Shown in pieces: positions 13,590-58,576 of a DNA stretch of 64,000 bases. The DNA lies in NCBI GenBank assembly GCA_049997815.1, contig JBEKVQ010000001.1, positions 20,642-84,641 of the forward strand. The letters are read 5' to 3'. The notes under the pieces are model-generated. The model did not search any database and was not told the DNA's origin. It saw only the letters and a program-made list of their open reading frames with translations. Numbering within the stretch: position 1 is the stretch's first letter; the number at the start of each line of letters is the position of its first letter. This DNA is from Minisyncoccia bacterium (GTDB lineage Bacteria; Patescibacteriota; Minisyncoccia; UBA6257; GWB1-50-10). A program made the position numbers and the translations under genes.

Positions 13590-14813
13590 ATGGATTTAAA
13601 ACAATTAGCCAACGCTGCGGAACAGATAGCGGCCGAAAAGGGAATTCCCGCCGAAAAGGTTCTGGGAGCCATCGAGGCCTCGATCGCCGCGGCCTATAAG
13701 AAGGAGTATCGGAAGCGCTCCGAAATTATCCGCGCCAAGTTCAACATGAAGAGCGGCGAGGTGGATTTCTCGCAGGTGAAGACGGTGGTTGACCCGTCGC
13801 AGGTGCGCGTCGTAAGCGAGACCGAGGAAGAGGAAATGAACCCGACCGCCTCGGAAGAGAAGGACGAACTGCCCCGCTACAATCCCGACCGGCACATTTT
13901 TTTGGACGAGGCCAAGAAAATAAAATCCGACGCTAAAGCGGACGAGGAGATAGAATTTCCGCTCGAGGCCCACGCCGATTTCGGTCGCATCGCGGCCCAG
14001 ACGGCCAAGCAGGTGATTTTGCAGAACCTTCGCGAGGCGGAACGCTCGTCCATTAAGGAGGAGTTTGCCGACAAGGAGGGGACCATCGTGAGCGGCGCGG
14101 TCCAGCGCTTTGACCACGGGAACGTTTTCGTGAATCTCGGTCGCGCGGTGGGTATAATGTATCCAAATGAGAGCATTCCCGGCGAGCACTATCGCTTGGG
14201 CGACCGGATGCGTTTCTACGTTCTGGCCGTCCAGGACGACGCCCGCCGTCCCGGCATCATTCTTTCCCGTTCCCACCCGAACTTCGTGGCTAAACTTTTT
14301 GAGCTTGAGGTGCCGGAGATTGCCGAAAAAACGGTGGAAATAAAAGAGATTGCGAGAGAAGCGGGCAGCCGCACGAAGATAGCGGTGGCTTCGAAAGAAG
14401 AGGGTGTTGACCCGGTGGGTTCGGCGGTCGGCCAGCGCGGAACGCGCGTAATGGCGGTTACGAATGAGCTCGGGAATGAAAAAATAGACATCATTGAATG
14501 GTCCGATGACCCCTCGAAATTCATCGGCAATTCCGTATCGCCGGCCAAGGCGAAATTGGTGGAGATTTTGGACCGGCGGGAGGCAAGGGTCTTGGTTTCC
14601 GAAGACCAATTGAGTTTGGCCATCGGTAAAGGCGGGCAGAACGTCCGTCTGGCGGCGAAACTGACCGGCTGGAAGATAGATGTGCGCTCGCAATCCAATC
14701 CGGAAGCGGTTCTGGAGGGCGGAGTGGCTTCGGCTGAAGAAGGAGAAGGAGGCGATGCCATCACTGATTTTGGCGACGGCGCGGAAACCGTGAAGGAAAC
14801 AAAATTAGACTAG
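13590..14813 (+). CDS. nusA: transcription termination/antitermination factor NusA
   Basis: N-terminal domain, S1 domain (GTIVSGAVQRFDHGNVFVNLG) and two KH domains (GSAVGQRGTRV; IGKGGQNVRLA). Confidence 0.9.
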   Translation: MDLKQLANAAEQIAAEKGIPAEKVLGAIEASIAAAYKKEYRKRSEIIRAKFNMKSGEVDFSQVKTVVDPSQVRVVSETEEEEMNPTASEEKDELPRYNPDRHIFLDEAKKIKSDAKADEEIEFPLEAHADFGRIAAQTAKQVILQNLREAERSSIKEEFADKEGTIVSGAVQRFDHGNVFVNLGRAVGIMYPNESIPGEHYRLGDRMRFYVLAVQDDARRPGIILSRSHPNFVAKLFELEVPEIAEKTVEIKEIAREAGSRTKIAVASKEEGVDPVGSAVGQRGTRVMAVTNELGNEKIDIIEWSDDPSKFIGNSVSPAKAKLVEILDRREARVLVSEDQLSLAIGKGGQNVRLAAKLTGWKIDVRSQSNPEAVLEGGVASAEEGEGGDAITDFGDGAETVKETKLD

Positions 14814-14877
14814 GAAGAAAAGGCAATATAGTCGATTAACATTTTTTATCCCTCCAAAACAGGGGCCTTAATCAGTT

Positions 14878-14908
14878 TTAAAACCCTCATTTTATGAGGG
14901 TTTTGAGT
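14878..14908 (+). terminator. rho-independent terminator
   Basis: Perfect hairpin aaaaccctca-tttta-tgagggtttt after nusA. Confidence 0.65.
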
Positions 14909-14911
14909 ACT

Positions 14912-14940
14912 TTGACAAATTACTATATTAGATGTATAAT
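14912..14940 (+). promoter_or_regulatory. consensus sigma-70-type promoter
   Basis: TTGACA (14912-14917), a 17-nt spacer, then TATAAT (14935-14940). Confidence 0.55.
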
Positions 14941-14974
14941 ATACTTAGATACTTGAGGAATTGAACGTGTGATT

Positions 14975-15120
14975 TTCCGCCCTGATCTCCATCAGAGGGC
15001 CTGTTCATTCTCACTAAGAGATGAACAAAAACCGAAACTGTTTTCTTCTCTGCCCTGATTTTCACCGAGGGATTAACACTCGCTAAGAGTGTGGAAGAAA
15101 AACAGTGTCTGTCCCCACGG
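14975..15120 (+). ncRNA. candidate cis-regulatory leader RNA made of two tandem ~70-nt structured units
   Basis: Two units share GCCCTGAT..CA..GAGGG, a hairpin with loop C(A/G)CTAAGAG, then AAAAAC...CTGT. They lie between the consensus promoter and the ORF at 15145. Confidence 0.35.
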
Positions 15121-15144
15121 ACGTAAAAATATGGGGAGGATAGT

Positions 15145-15609
15145 ATGGTAAAACCCGAGTTGGTAAGAATTCCGGAACGTTTCGCTAAATCAGTTGGCGA
15201 ATTAGATTTCGCTACTGTGGCGAGGGTTCTGGGTGGGGGGATGCACAACATGAGCTCCGATACCCAAAATGAAGCAGATTCATTCGTTTTGGATAATGGC
15301 CTTAAGCTTAAGGACGTTCCCCATGTTTTTATGGCCACCCATTCAATGGGCGGTAGGGAGTGGAAGGTGATAACTGGTCGCAAGCCAGGCTACATTTCGG
15401 AAGGATGCTTCAATGGGGGATGGTATATTTTTACGGATGAGGATGTGGACTATCTCCATTGTTCGTCAGCAACATCGGGTAGTAGTCTGACAGCCGAAAA
15501 GCTATCAGACGGTTCTTGGAATGTGACACTTGAGGTTCCGAGCGATGGTGGGCAACCCTACCAAGGATTTTACTGGGATTGTTTCCATAAAGCTCTCGGT
15601 CTTGAATAA
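15145..15609 (+). CDS. hypothetical protein
   Basis: ORF downstream of the structured leader with a GGGGAGGA SD. No recognised family. Confidence 0.4.
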   Translation: MVKPELVRIPERFAKSVGELDFATVARVLGGGMHNMSSDTQNEADSFVLDNGLKLKDVPHVFMATHSMGGREWKVITGRKPGYISEGCFNGGWYIFTDEDVDYLHCSSATSGSSLTAEKLSDGSWNVTLEVPSDGGQPYQGFYWDCFHKALGLE

Positions 15610-15630
15610 GTCACAAGAAACAGCATAGAG

Positions 15631-15667
15631 TCCAAAAGTCGAGTAGTTTCATTACTCGACTTTTTTA
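15631..15667 (+). terminator. rho-independent terminator
   Basis: agtcgagtag-tttcatt-actcgact hairpin followed by TTTTTTATT. Confidence 0.6.
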
Positions 15668-15713
15668 TTCCCCAAATTTGAGAGAAAAGAGATTTATCGG
15701 CATAATTAAGCCA

Positions 15714-33524: not shown

Positions 33525-36500
33525 ATGAAGGAATACGATTTCCAAAAGATCGAGAAAAAATGGCAGAAAAGGTGGCTTGAAGACGGCACCTACGAACCGG
33601 ATTTGGTGAAGGCCAAAAATCCCTTCTATAACCTGATGATGTTCCCGTACCCGTCGGCCGAAGGGCTGCACGTCGGGAATATGTATGCTTTCACGGGCGC
33701 GGACATCTACGGCCGGATGAAGCGGATGCGGGGCTACGACGTTTTCGAGCCTATCGGGCTGGACGGCTTCGGGATTCATTCGGAAAACTATGCCCTGAAA
33801 ATCGGCGCGCACCCAATGGACCAGGCAAAAATATCGGAAAAACGTTTTTACGAACAGCTCCGGATGATCGGGAATGGCTTTGCCTGGAACGAAAAGGTGG
33901 AGACCTATAACCCGGATTATTACAAATGGACCCAATGGGTTTTCACGGAGATGTGGAGGCGCGGCCTGGCCTATCGCAAAAAACAATCGGTGAACTGGTG
34001 CCCGAAAGACAAAACGGTCTTGGCTGATGAGCAGGTAATCGCCGGAAAATGCGAAAGGTGCTCCGCGGTCGTCGTCAAAAAAGATATGGAGCAGTGGTTT
34101 TTCAGGATTACTAAATATGCCGAAAAACTCTTAAAGAACCTGGATAAGATAGATTGGTCGGAAAGAGTGAAAATAGCCCAGCGGAATTGGATTGGGAAAT
34201 CCGAGGGCGCGCTGCTGGATTTCGAAATCAAGGGCGGTGTCGCGCCGTCCTATGTTTTGCTCCACGGATATACCGGCTCGCCCAAGAAACATTTTTTCCC
34301 CTGGCTCAAGAAGGAATTGGAAAAGCGCGGAGCGAAAGTTTACGCGCCGGAACTGCCGGATGCCGAAGATCCTAAGGTTTATGACCAAGCGGCCGAAGTC
34401 CTGAAATCCGTGCCGTTCGGCGAGGACACGGTGCTCGTGGGGCATAGTTTGGGCGGAGTGGTGGCACTTAAGGTTCTCGAGAAACTGAATAAGCCGGTAA
34501 GAAAGACCGTGCTCGTCACAAGTTACAACGAAAACAAGTTTTTTAACGACCCCTTTGAACCTCATACCTTTGACTGGAAATTCGACGTAAAGAAAATAAA
34601 AGCCAATGCCGGGAACATCCATATTTTGAGGGATATGACCGATGACGTTGTCCCTTCGTACCAGGCAGACAATCTAAAGGACGTTTTTGGGGGAGAAATA
34701 TTCGATTTCAGCGCAGCGACGCCCCATGCTTGGGGAAAGAAGGAGAAAGAGGAACCCGAGATTTTGGGTCATTGTATTGATTCTCTCCGGGTTTTCACGA
34801 CCCGCCCCGACACGCTCTTCGGCGCGACCTATATGGTCGTGGCACCGGAACACGGAATGGTAGGGGAACTCAAAGAGAAAATAACGAACTACAAGGAGGT
34901 TGAGGCCTATGTGAAGAAAACGAGCAACAAGTCGGAGGAAGAAAGAATAGAAGAAGGGAAGGAAAAGACCGGGGTGGAACTCAAGGGGATTAAGGCGGTG
35001 AATCCCGTAAATAATGAAGAAATCCCGGTTTTCATCGCCGATTACGTGCTCGCCTCATACGGGACGGGCGCCATTATGGCGGTGCCGGCGCATGACGAAC
35101 GGGATTATGAGTTTGCAAAGAAATATAAATTGCCGATCCGGGAAGTGGTTATCAGGAAATTTGGTGAAACAAAGAGTGGAGCGCAAGAAAGAAAAACAGT
35201 GTATGCCGTTGTTAAACACAAAGATAAGATTCTCCTGGTATTCAATAAAAAACTCAACGAGCATCAGTTACCAGGAGGGAAAATTGAAGATGGCGAGAAT
35301 GACTCTGATACGCTGCGTAGGGAAATCGCGGAAGAAACTGGGTACGATCACGTGACGCCGCAGACATATCTCGGCCAGATTGATTTCAATTATTTCTTCC
35401 GTCACTACAAGTTCGATAGCCATTTGCGGGCGAAAGGATATCTTGTAGAACTGAATGACGAGCATAAAATTCCGGTTCGTAATTCCACCGGGGAAAACAT
35501 GCAGTCATCCGAATGGATGGAGGCAGACAGAGCGATCGAATGTATGAAGAACGGAACATGGAGTGGGATTGAGGGATTTATCAAGCGTGCAACAGGACAA
35601 GAATCACTCTGCTTCTCCGGCGATGGTGTATTAGTGGACTCTGATAATTTTGACGGAACGGATTCCGAAAAAGCCAAGTGGGAAATCACAAAGCTCGTGG
35701 GCGGAGAAAGAAAAATCCAATACCGCTTACGCGACTGGCTTATCTCGCGCCAGCGCTACTGGGGTGCGCCGATACCAATGATCCACTGCGAGGCCTGCGC
35801 CTCGAAGGGCGATGGCGAACAGAAAGAAATGCTTGGCTGGTATGCCGTACCAGAAAAAAATCTGCCGGTGGAACTTCCTTACGTCAAAGATTTCCGTCCG
35901 CAGGGCAAGGGCGAATCTCCGCTCGCTTCGGTCAAAGAATTTTATGAAGCGAAGTGCCCCCACTGCGGCGGGAAGGCGCGCCGGGAGACCGACGTCTCGG
36001 ACACTTTCCTGGACTCGGCCTGGTATTATCTCCGCTACCCGAGTGCAAAAGAAAAAAATAAGGCCTGGGATTTGGAAATGACGAAAAAATGGTTCCCGGT
36101 GAATCTCTATACCGGCGGAGCGGAACACTCCGTTCTCCATCTTCTCTACGTTCGCTTCGTGGCCATGGCTTTTCATGATGCCGGCTGGCTTGATTTCGAA
36201 GAGCCGTTCCCGAAGTTCCGCGCGCACGGGCTGCTCATAAAAGAGGGAGCGAAGATGTCCAAGTCCAAGGGGAATGTGATAAATCCGGACGAGTACATAA
36301 AAAAATTCGGCGCCGATTCCCTCCGAATGTATCTGATGTTCCTCGCGCCCTTCGAGCAGGGCGGCGATTTCCGGGACGAAGCGGTTCTGGGTATTGTGCG
36401 TTTTTTGGACCGAGTTTGGAATTTGTACATGAAAGAACCCGGCGTTTCCGGCTGGGCGGACGAAAATGTTCTTCGTCTCACACATCGCACGATAAAAAAG

Positions 36501-36920
36501 ATAACGGACGATATCGAATCTCTTCATTACAATACCGCCATTAGCGCTTTAATGATTCTCCTGAACGAACTTGAGAAGGCAAATCCCGACAGAGAGAATA
36601 AAGAAGTGTTTTTGAAACTTCTCGCTCCCTTTGCCCCCCATATAACCGAGGAGCTTTGGCATGAATTGGGCAATCCGGCGTCGATTCATAGAGAATCCTG
36701 GCCAGTCGCCAATCCAAAATTATTGAAAGAGGAGGATTTCGACATGGTGGTTCAGGTGAACGGAAAACTGCGAGCAACCGTCAAAATGCCGAGGGGCATT
36801 GCCCAGAAAGATGCCGAGAAAGCAGCATTGAGCAATGAAAATGTGAGGAATTCCCTTGCCGGGCAGAAACCGAAGAAAATCATTTTCGTCCCCGACCGCT
36901 TAATTAATTTCGTGGTTTGA
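33525..36920 (+). CDS. leuS: leucine--tRNA ligase with two inserted hydrolase domains (alpha/beta serine hydrolase; Nudix)
   Basis: Canonical LeuRS blocks: PYPSAEGLHVGN (HIGH), NWIGKSEG, TTRPDTLFGATY (CP1), RLRDWLISRQRYWG and KMSKSKGN. Insert 1 (aa ~236-415) carries LLHGYTGS and GHSLGG. Insert 2 (aa ~555-690) carries a perfect Nudix box GGKIEDGENDSDTLRREIAEETGY. Confidence 0.9.
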   Translation: MKEYDFQKIEKKWQKRWLEDGTYEPDLVKAKNPFYNLMMFPYPSAEGLHVGNMYAFTGADIYGRMKRMRGYDVFEPIGLDGFGIHSENYALKIGAHPMDQAKISEKRFYEQLRMIGNGFAWNEKVETYNPDYYKWTQWVFTEMWRRGLAYRKKQSVNWCPKDKTVLADEQVIAGKCERCSAVVVKKDMEQWFFRITKYAEKLLKNLDKIDWSERVKIAQRNWIGKSEGALLDFEIKGGVAPSYVLLHGYTGSPKKHFFPWLKKELEKRGAKVYAPELPDAEDPKVYDQAAEVLKSVPFGEDTVLVGHSLGGVVALKVLEKLNKPVRKTVLVTSYNENKFFNDPFEPHTFDWKFDVKKIKANAGNIHILRDMTDDVVPSYQADNLKDVFGGEIFDFSAATPHAWGKKEKEEPEILGHCIDSLRVFTTRPDTLFGATYMVVAPEHGMVGELKEKITNYKEVEAYVKKTSNKSEEERIEEGKEKTGVELKGIKAVNPVNNEEIPVFIADYVLASYGTGAIMAVPAHDERDYEFAKKYKLPIREVVIRKFGETKSGAQERKTVYAVVKHKDKILLVFNKKLNEHQLPGGKIEDGENDSDTLRREIAEETGYDHVTPQTYLGQIDFNYFFRHYKFDSHLRAKGYLVELNDEHKIPVRNSTGENMQSSEWMEADRAIECMKNGTWSGIEGFIKRATGQESLCFSGDGVLVDSDNFDGTDSEKAKWEITKLVGGERKIQYRLRDWLISRQRYWGAPIPMIHCEACASKGDGEQKEMLGWYAVPEKNLPVELPYVKDFRPQGKGESPLASVKEFYEAKCPHCGGKARRETDVSDTFLDSAWYYLRYPSAKEKNKAWDLEMTKKWFPVNLYTGGAEHSVLHLLYVRFVAMAFHDAGWLDFEEPFPKFRAHGLLIKEGAKMSKSKGNVINPDEYIKKFGADSLRMYLMFLAPFEQGGDFRDEAVLGIVRFLDRVWNLYMKEPGVSGWADENVLRLTHRTIKKITDDIESLHYNTAISALMILLNELEKANPDRENKEVFLKLLAPFAPHITEELWHELGNPASIHRESWPVANPKLLKEEDFDMVVQVNGKLRATVKMPRGIAQKDAEKAALSNENVRNSLAGQKPKKIIFVPDRLINFVV

Positions 36921-58087: not shown

Positions 58088-58106
58088 TGCGGAGGGTAGA
58101 GGATTC
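58088..58106. repeat. 19-bp direct repeat tgcggagggtagaggattc (tRNA-proximal att-like copy)
   Basis: Forms the 3' end (T-loop to discriminator) of tRNA-Ser(CGA). Identical to 39777-39795. Confidence 0.6.
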
Positions 58107-58176
58107 GAACCTCTGAGGGGATTTCTCCCCAACCGCATTTCGAGTGCGGCGCGTTAGACCACTCTGCCAACCCTCC
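58090..58176 (-). tRNA. tRNA-Ser (anticodon CGA)
   Basis: Reverse complement GGAGGGTTGGCAGAGTGGTCTAACGCGCCGCA-CTCGAAA-TGCGG...GGTTCGAATCCTCTACCCTCCG. Long variable arm. Anticodon loop CTCGAAA. Confidence 0.85.
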
Positions 58177-58184
58177 TTCGCACG

Positions 58185-58256
58185 TGCCCCCGAGAGGAAT
58201 CGAACTTCTATCTTATCCTTAGGACGGATCCGCTCTATCCATTGAGCTACGGGGGC
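58185..58256 (-). tRNA. tRNA-Arg (anticodon CCT)
   Basis: Reverse complement GCCCCCG TA GCTC AATGGATA GAGC G GATCC GTCCTAA GGATA ... GTTCGATTC ... CGGGGGC A. Anticodon stem is 4 bp plus a 27:43 G-A mismatch. Confidence 0.7.
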
Positions 58257-58326
58257 GATGCTATGTATTTATATGATAAGTTGAAGCTCATGTAAAGTTT
58301 TGTTATGATGTTCTCGCAACAAATAA

Positions 58327-58398
58327 GGGCGATTAGCTCAGTGGTAGAGCGTTTCATTGACATTGAAAAGGTCAGAGGTTCGATACCTCTATCGCCCA
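58327..58398 (+). tRNA. tRNA-Val (anticodon GAC)
   Basis: GGGCGAT TA GCTC AGTGGTA GAGC G TTTCA TTGACAT TGAAA AGGTC AGAGG TTCGATA CCTCT ATCGCCC A. Confidence 0.85.
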
Positions 58399-58406
58399 CA
58401 GGCAGG

Positions 58407-58477
58407 GGGCCTATAGTAAAACGGTATTACGCGGCCATGGCATGGCTGAGGTCGGGGTTCGATTCCCCGTAGGTCCA
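58407..58477 (+). tRNA. tRNA-Ala (anticodon GGC)
   Basis: GGGCCTA ... CGGCC ATGGCAT GGCTG ... CGGGG TTCGATT CCCCG TAGGTCC A. Has the G3:U70 wobble pair characteristic of tRNA-Ala. Confidence 0.8.
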
Positions 58478-58489
58478 CGGGATTTATTC

Positions 58490-58576
58490 GGAGGCGTGCG
58501 CGAGTGGTTGAAACGGACGGTCTTGAAAACCGTTATGTCCGCAAGGGCATCGAAGGTTCGAATCCTTCCGCCTCCG
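58490..58576 (+). tRNA. tRNA-Ser (anticodon TGA)
   Basis: GGAGGCG ... ACGGT CTTGAAA ACCGT, a long variable arm, AAGG TTCGAAT CCTT, CGCCTCC G. Confidence 0.85.

Follow-up and report, generated by a model that had tools for sequence, protein, structure and literature searches.

A tandemly duplicated structured 5' leader, private to one strain, upstream of a rare conserved gene in a Minisyncoccia bacterium

It was found that the 5' leader of an uncharacterised 154-codon ORF in a Minisyncoccia bacterium (Patescibacteriota) contains a module of about 72 nt in two tandem copies, both of which retain the same predicted fold. The DNA analysed, referred to below as the window, is a stretch of 64,000 nt (assembly GCA_049997815.1, contig JBEKVQ010000001.1, positions 20,642-84,641 of the forward strand). 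The leader belongs to the general kind of structured 5' leaders, without assignment to a family, and, judging from the genomes searched, only one strain carries the motif. The reading towards which we lean, tentatively and with somewhat less than even confidence, is that of a lineage-private, duplicated, cis-acting 5' leader, at the two loops of which a putative factor would tune translation or mRNA stability.

The nusA gene (13590-14813; NusA_N, S1 and KH domains in Pfam) is followed by a predicted intrinsic terminator (14874-14911, + strand; core AAAACCCUCAUUUUAUGAGGGUUUU, -18.1 kcal/mol, z -5.6), which forms the upstream boundary of the cassette. As the preliminary description had stated, a consensus promoter of the sigma-70 type lies immediately after this terminator (TTGACA-17-TATAAT, 14912-14940, + strand; TTGACA at 14912-14917 and TATAAT at 14935-14940). 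It scored 12 of 12 and was the sole perfect TTGACA-N17-TATAAT in the 64 kb, where shuffled sequences gave an expectation of 0. Judging from the position of the -10 box, transcription probably starts at about 14947, and the resulting leader of 198 nt (14947-15144, + strand; minimum free energy (MFE) -64.2 kcal/mol, z -3.1) precedes the ORF (15145-15609, + strand), which encodes a member of an uncharacterised conserved family. The ORF has its own predicted intrinsic terminator, a 14-bp stem followed by a U-run (15634-15668, + strand; -18.8 kcal/mol, z -9.3). This is the downstream boundary, beyond which come a promoter-like site and the murD-like gene to which it belongs. The promoter, leader, ORF and terminator constitute a self-contained cassette of about 760 bp (14905-15670) between nusA and murD, bounded by terminators on both sides, and the leader and the ORF are presumably co-transcribed. 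The GC content of the cassette was not anomalous. The genomic neighbours of the ORF homologues were different at each locus, which fits a self-contained accessory cassette, and these varied contexts suggest that the cassette has moved horizontally. Among the unrelated neighbourhoods were a tRNA gene with a Ni-SOD gene, a KwaB-domain (PF16162) gene with a PIF1-family helicase gene, and a DEAD helicase gene with a P-type ATPase gene.

The tandem arrangement of the leader, which the preliminary description had proposed, was borne out by a non-circular search. When unit 2 alone was used to build a covariance model and both strands of the 64 kb were searched with filters off, unit 1 was recovered with 29.5 bits and an E value of 6.5e-5; the next-best match of this model in the window reached 16.4 bits and lay within the coding region of leucyl-tRNA synthetase. 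With a model built from both units, no other match in the window exceeded 13.7 bits. The composite pattern GCCCTGAT..GAGGG..CTAAGAG occurred exactly twice in the window (14979 and 15052; 0 expected), and three repeat blocks, TTYTCYGCCCTGATYTYCA, CTCRCTAAGAG and GAASAAAAAC..CTGT, were spaced by 69-73 nt. The blocks were located where the preliminary description had put them, but the spacing of 2 nt that it gave after CA is 3 nt in unit 1. The two units were 75% identical in a structure-aware alignment. Tandem Repeats Finder did not detect the repeat in the leader because the two copies were too diverged.

Each unit consists, in order, of a pyrimidine tract (UUYUCY), hairpin 1, hairpin 2, AAAAAC and CUGU; it begins 6 nt earlier than first described, with the pyrimidine tract. 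In unit 1 (14973-15041, + strand), the UUUUCC tract is followed by hairpin 1 at 14979-15000 (GCCCU/AGGGC), hairpin 2 at 15003-15026 (GUUCAU-U-CUC ACUAA GAG-AUGAAC), AAAAAC at 15027-15032 and CUGU at 15038-15041. In unit 2 (15046-15112, + strand), the UUCUCU tract is followed by hairpin 1 at 15053-15071 (CCCU/AGGG), hairpin 2 at 15076-15092 (ACACUC GCUAA GAGUGU), the tail GGAAGAAAAAC at 15093-15103 and CUGU at 15109-15112. The loop of hairpin 1 has 11-12 nt in both units. In hairpin 2, which had been described as a hairpin with the loop C(A/G)CTAAGAG, the sequence was confirmed, while the loop proper was predicted to be RCUAA (ACUAA in unit 1, GCUAA in unit 2) closed by CUC/GAG pairs common to both units. 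The outer stems of hairpin 2 differ between the units, GUUCAU/AUGAAC versus ACA/UGU, and both pair.

The predicted core of unit 1 had a free energy of -17.9 kcal/mol (z -3.46), and none of 200 shuffled sequences was as stable; for unit 2, these values were -13.1 kcal/mol (z -2.08) and 6 of 200. Unit 2 is additionally enclosed by a predicted helix of 12 bp (15037-15106, + strand) between ACUGUUUUCUUC (15037-15048) and GAAGAAAAACAGU (15094-15106), which was absent from the earlier description. This helix makes unit 2 a three-way junction and was present in both the MFE and the centroid structure of the full leader. Since one of its strands is 15037-15048, the 3' flank of unit 1 belongs to the three-way junction of unit 2. 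A 77-nt piece comprising unit 2 with its flanks had a predicted energy of -24.5 kcal/mol (z -3.42). None of 200 shuffles was as stable as the whole leader, and all four hairpins appeared in both its MFE and its centroid structure. One compensatory pair was counted between the units; with two copies only, 228 of 500 shuffles equalled it.

A leader peptide with an upstream start or a plausible Shine-Dalgarno (SD) sequence was not found upon inspection of the leader sequence. The frame in which the differences between the 5' blocks look synonymous is closed by a TGA just upstream, and a 21-codon ORF at 15021 lacks a usable SD. Nor was a terminator found within the leader, as there is no hairpin with a U-run between 15112 and 15144.

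The two folded units in series had been taken for a cooperative tandem riboswitch, in which each unit would be a small-molecule aptamer and translation would be controlled by the two in cooperation. That a pair of similar folded units adjoins the SD within the 5' leader is in line with this reading, as is the three-way junction predicted for unit 2. However, the Rfam 15 scan of the whole 64 kb at the gathering threshold found only tRNAs, and at E<=10 the region 14800-15250 gave nothing credible in the leader, the best matches having E>=0.5 and scores far below threshold. The motif thus matches no Rfam family. As a separate observation, five tRNA genes are clustered at 58090-58576 on both strands of the window.

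Larger collections were scanned with an exact 21-base pattern spanning both hairpins, CCCTGA..GAGGG..CTCRCTAAGAG. No match was found in viral contigs, and 185,579 species genomes (one per species) gave nine single matches in unrelated taxa, none of them hairpin-forming or present in tandem copies, which are read as chance. The only other copies of the motif were found at two loci (L009 and L030), where it is identical. These loci belong to the same strain, with one SNP, which lies inside the ORF. The motif therefore appears, from the sequences compared, to be private to one strain.

The leaders of homologous genes were also compared. Apart from the leader of the window, 10 independent homologue leaders were recovered; an alignment of 50 protein sequences proved too diverse to locate homologue loci with. 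The window and 13 homologue loci were searched, with filters off, with the models R1 (unit 2 alone) and R2 (both units). The motif was absent from all 10 independent leaders. In the 35 kb of homologue loci, the best match of R1 was in the L013 leader (11.9 bits, E 0.73), and R2 reached 9.5 bits (E 2.8). In local alignments of the window leader with those of the homologues, the best z values were 3.8 (L032, 5' part) and 2.9 (L008); all others stayed below 1.6, whereas truly related homologue leaders aligned at z 5-39. An nhmmer profile of subgroup A, the closest subgroup, found nothing in the window leader. In Rfam scans of the homologue loci, one tRNA was found, and the other matches were below threshold and outside the leaders of these loci. 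Even the nearest homologues (59-61% identity) carry leaders unrelated to that of the window, whereas known riboswitch classes are conserved across wide phylogenetic distances. Recurrence of the motif upstream of homologous genes had been set beforehand as the test of the riboswitch reading, and because the motif recurred neither there nor in the species genomes, this reading is unsupported. We consider it quite unlikely.

Several resemblances noticed by eye did not withstand scrutiny. The L013 leader had seemed to offer a parallel (GGGAUU, a variable hairpin and GGAAAAAC), but its R2 score fell into the noise. The hand-derived pattern NGGGAUK...GAAAAAC, present in 4 of 11 leaders, was post hoc and was rejected as evidence of homology. 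Neither this pattern nor the resemblance assembled by eye from GGGAUU, a variable hairpin, GAAAAAC and AAGU..CYCAC withstood two unbiased k-mer tests: with ordered 6-mer pairs among the leaders, 115 of 200 shuffles did as well as the real leaders, and with 8-mers common across lineages, 9 of 60 did.

The known RNAs closest to the leader resemble it in layout only. The glycine riboswitch (RF00504) likewise has two similar folded units in series 5' of an ORF, but the leader has no Rfam match and is confined to one strain. Guanidine-II (mini-ykkC) RNAs consist of two small hairpins with variable stems, identical loops and closing pairs, connected by a linker and located near the SD; their loops are ACGR tetraloops on a C-G closing pair. 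The leader shares with them the paired hairpins with a common loop and closing pairs next to the SD. It differs from them in that its loops are ACUAA and GCUAA and not ACGR, in that it gave no match of the RF01068 type, and in that an additional hairpin and a tail make its units bigger. Moreover, RCUAA is not self-complementary, so that a loop-loop kissing dimer is impossible.

A habit common to the family was seen. At four homologue loci (L006, L008, L013 and L032), the promoter reads TTGACA-17-TATAAT or TATACT, and the leaders, 200-360 nt long, have very stable predicted folds. Within one subgroup (L006, L010 and L032), a double hairpin of 80 nt in the leader (L006 2162-2241; L010 6-87; L032 1172-1251) is 78-87% identical, compared with 66-73% nucleotide identity for the coding sequence. 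The double hairpin consists of CGGGUUUCGGCGCAGAGUUC..GGAUUGCGCGYCGAAACUCG and of a hairpin whose loop reads YAUGUYG and whose stem shows compensatory changes; it had no match in Rfam. Since this hairpin is more conserved than the coding sequence, we take the leaders of the 154-aa family to be under selection, and in the sequences compared they at the same time turn over quickly between lineages. In the L035 lineage, the leader contains a perfectly paired hairpin of 22 bp with a U-run after it (UUCGCUUUUUUU, at about 250-320), which resembles an intrinsic terminator and lies about 30 nt 5' of the SD, suggesting attenuation there. L035 is on the same contig as L039, and the same protein on another contig is L038.

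The main rival explanation is a neutral one, according to which about 72 nt were duplicated in tandem in a 5' UTR that was long to begin with. The hairpins would then contribute nothing more specific than mRNA structure or stability in general, and the blocks would be conserved because the copies have had little time to diverge. We regard this explanation as somewhat unlikely. It accords with the confinement of the motif to one strain and with our own estimate that identical runs of 7-8 bases are not improbable at 75% identity. It is opposed by the purifying selection on the leaders of relatives and by the fact that both copies are more stable than their shuffles. To these can be added a simulation in which the unit copies received random mutations until they had diverged as far as the real ones. 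Two hairpins were retained in 22-38% of the trials, which agrees with a relic. In contrast, only 1.7% of the mutated copies of unit 2 reached the stability of unit 1; in the opposite direction, 14% of the mutated copies of unit 1 were as stable as unit 2, which again agrees with a relic. The simulation is mild evidence against pure neutrality, and the rejection is weak in the direction from unit 1 to unit 2. The distribution of the differences also speaks against a mere relic, as they cluster in the stem of hairpin 2 with the pairing kept and the loop retained.

The region of the start codon provides a further comparison. A predicted element at 15112-15140 (+ strand) can form through pairing of UCCCCA (15112-15117) with UGGGGA (15132-15137), and UGGGGA overlaps the SD sequence GGGGAGGA (15133-15140). 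In an alternative predicted pairing, AUUUUCC (14971-14977), just 5' of unit 1, binds GGAGGAU. The calculated mean unpaired probability of the SD was 0.32, with 7.9 kcal/mol needed to open it; among the control ORFs of the window, 25-33% were occluded to the same degree or more. The occlusion predicted for this SD is ordinary for this genome, which is what neutral duplication would lead one to expect, and across the homologue leaders SD sequestration was not a family-wide trait.

The duplicated cis-acting leader that we favour would operate as follows. The module of about 72 nt was tandemly duplicated, and the fold was kept by both copies. The leader would act in cis and post-transcriptionally, restraining or tuning the output of an exceptionally strong promoter. 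A trans-acting factor would recognise the two CUC-RCUAA-GAG loops, carried on differing stems, as a pair of sites; the simplest candidate is an RNA-binding protein that forms dimers, and the 154-aa product itself may be this factor. Binding of this putative factor would shift the competition of the pyrimidine tracts or of CCCCA for the purine-rich SD GGGGAGGA or, alternatively, would alter mRNA stability. Both the regulatory effect and the factor, including which protein it is, we infer from sequence. In favour of this reading are the statistically sound repeat, the stability of both units and of the whole leader relative to shuffles, the low share of mutated copies of unit 2 that reached the stability of unit 1, the promoters and folded leaders of the relatives, and the lack of a plausible leader peptide. 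It is weakened by the confinement of the motif to one strain, by the ordinary occlusion of the SD and by the predicted fold of the 154-aa protein, which showed no likeness to known RNA-binding proteins. Such an arrangement would be similar to the targets of CsrA/RsmE and to ribosomal-protein leaders, in which identical hairpin loops in the 5' UTR, one of them near the SD, suit a dimeric binder. Unlike the CsrA/RsmE targets, the leader has no GGA motifs in its loops, and no model of a ribosomal-protein leader matches it.

Paired recognition sites might also be read at the level of DNA, the units being transcription-factor sites that form a roadblock downstream of the promoter. Inverted repeats do occur in each unit, e.g., CTGAT-N4-ATCAG in unit 1 and the palindromes of hairpin 2. 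However, unit 2 lacks the CTGAT/ATCAG palindrome, and the sites, at +33 to +165, are far from the promoter. Furthermore, the arms of hairpin 2 differ (GTTCAT/ATGAAC versus ACACTC/GAGTGT) while the centre is kept, and a dimeric DNA binder needs the reverse. Since the loop and closing pairs of hairpin 2 are kept and its outer stems differ yet pair, recognition of RNA is favoured over recognition of DNA, and we regard the DNA operators as very improbable.

The ORF downstream of the leader is a real conserved gene of a rare family without annotation. Its product had 11 homologue clusters among 5.8 billion proteins, and a profile search among 1.84 billion gave 149 representatives at E<=1e-3, including 36 at E<=1e-30. 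The conserved motifs are HSMGGREW, SATSGSSLTAEK, LEVP and PYQG.YW..FH. No model of Pfam, PHROG, PADLOC or NCBIfam matched the 154-aa protein or its relatives, in agreement with the earlier statement that its function is unassigned, and the family was absent from phage, plasmid and viral collections. At one homologue locus, the deposited call (L018 979-1047; P0009, 123 aa) seems to lack part of its N-terminus; 69 nt before the P0009 start lies an in-frame ATG that has its own SD and restores the N-terminal region of the family.

The AlphaFold (AF2) model of the 154-aa protein, which is confident (pLDDT 85, pTM 0.79), has the order beta-alpha-alpha-beta7-alpha and gave weak fold matches only; no resemblance of this predicted fold to known RNA-binding proteins was detected. 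It is no more than possible that the protein has a helix-grip-like ligand-binding fold. The likeness of the order of elements to that of ligand-binding helix-grip proteins, with weak matches only, would suit a riboswitch. A broader version of the regulatory reading can also be formulated, in which the units would be aptamers or protein- or RNA-recognition modules of an undescribed regulatory RNA, dedicated to a protein family, possibly helix-grip-like and ligand-binding, in which each lineage has its own fast-evolving yet selected leader after a consensus promoter, so that an obligatory structured leader would define the family. This version is considered unlikely.

Another reading considered was that the strongly expressed repeat RNA undergoes processing and is a partner to which the ORF product binds, on the model of type III toxin-antitoxin pairs or other small ribonucleoproteins. 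The layout of the cassette, with a strong promoter, tandem repeat RNA, a small ORF, its own terminator and variable contexts, is similar to that of the type III systems ToxIN, CptIN and TenpIN. AAAAAC occurs once in each unit, which provides an A-rich element, and the homologue at L035/L038 has a terminator-like hairpin between the leader and the ORF. However, type III systems have near-identical repeats of 34-45 nt with a terminator after them, and toxins of the ToxN/AbiQ fold. The cassette has just two diverged units, 75% identical, which Tandem Repeats Finder did not report as an array, and no terminator between them and the ORF, and the repeats are missing from most homologue leaders. The 154-aa protein matched none of the ToxN, AbiQ, CptN or TenpN families and gave no PADLOC match or fold match of this kind, and the absence of its family from phages and plasmids also argues against a partner RNA, which we consider very unlikely.

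The tandem appearance of the units is by itself insufficient to call a riboswitch. If the leader is functional, it would represent a rare case of post-transcriptional control in Patescibacteria, for which, to our knowledge, almost no regulatory RNAs are known, and it would provide an experimental handle on the unannotated 154-aa family (149 representative clusters). The sturdier lead is at the level of this family, with its consensus promoters, its long leaders and the hairpin that, in one subgroup, is more conserved than the coding sequence.

Two further features were noted. Just 3' of the homologous ORF at L032 (1846-1907, + strand), there is a weak match to the type III hammerhead (26.5 bits versus a gathering threshold of 48.5, E 0.041), in which a hairpin GCCGUUGAGUACGGC is followed by CUGAUGAG, UCC...GGA and CGAAA. 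In the window, the leucyl-tRNA synthetase gene (33525-36920, + strand) encodes a protein of 1131 aa with an unusual architecture: besides the editing domain, it contains two extra Pfam domains, an alpha/beta-hydrolase or serine-hydrolase insertion (residues 243-395) and a NUDIX insertion (residues 557-670).
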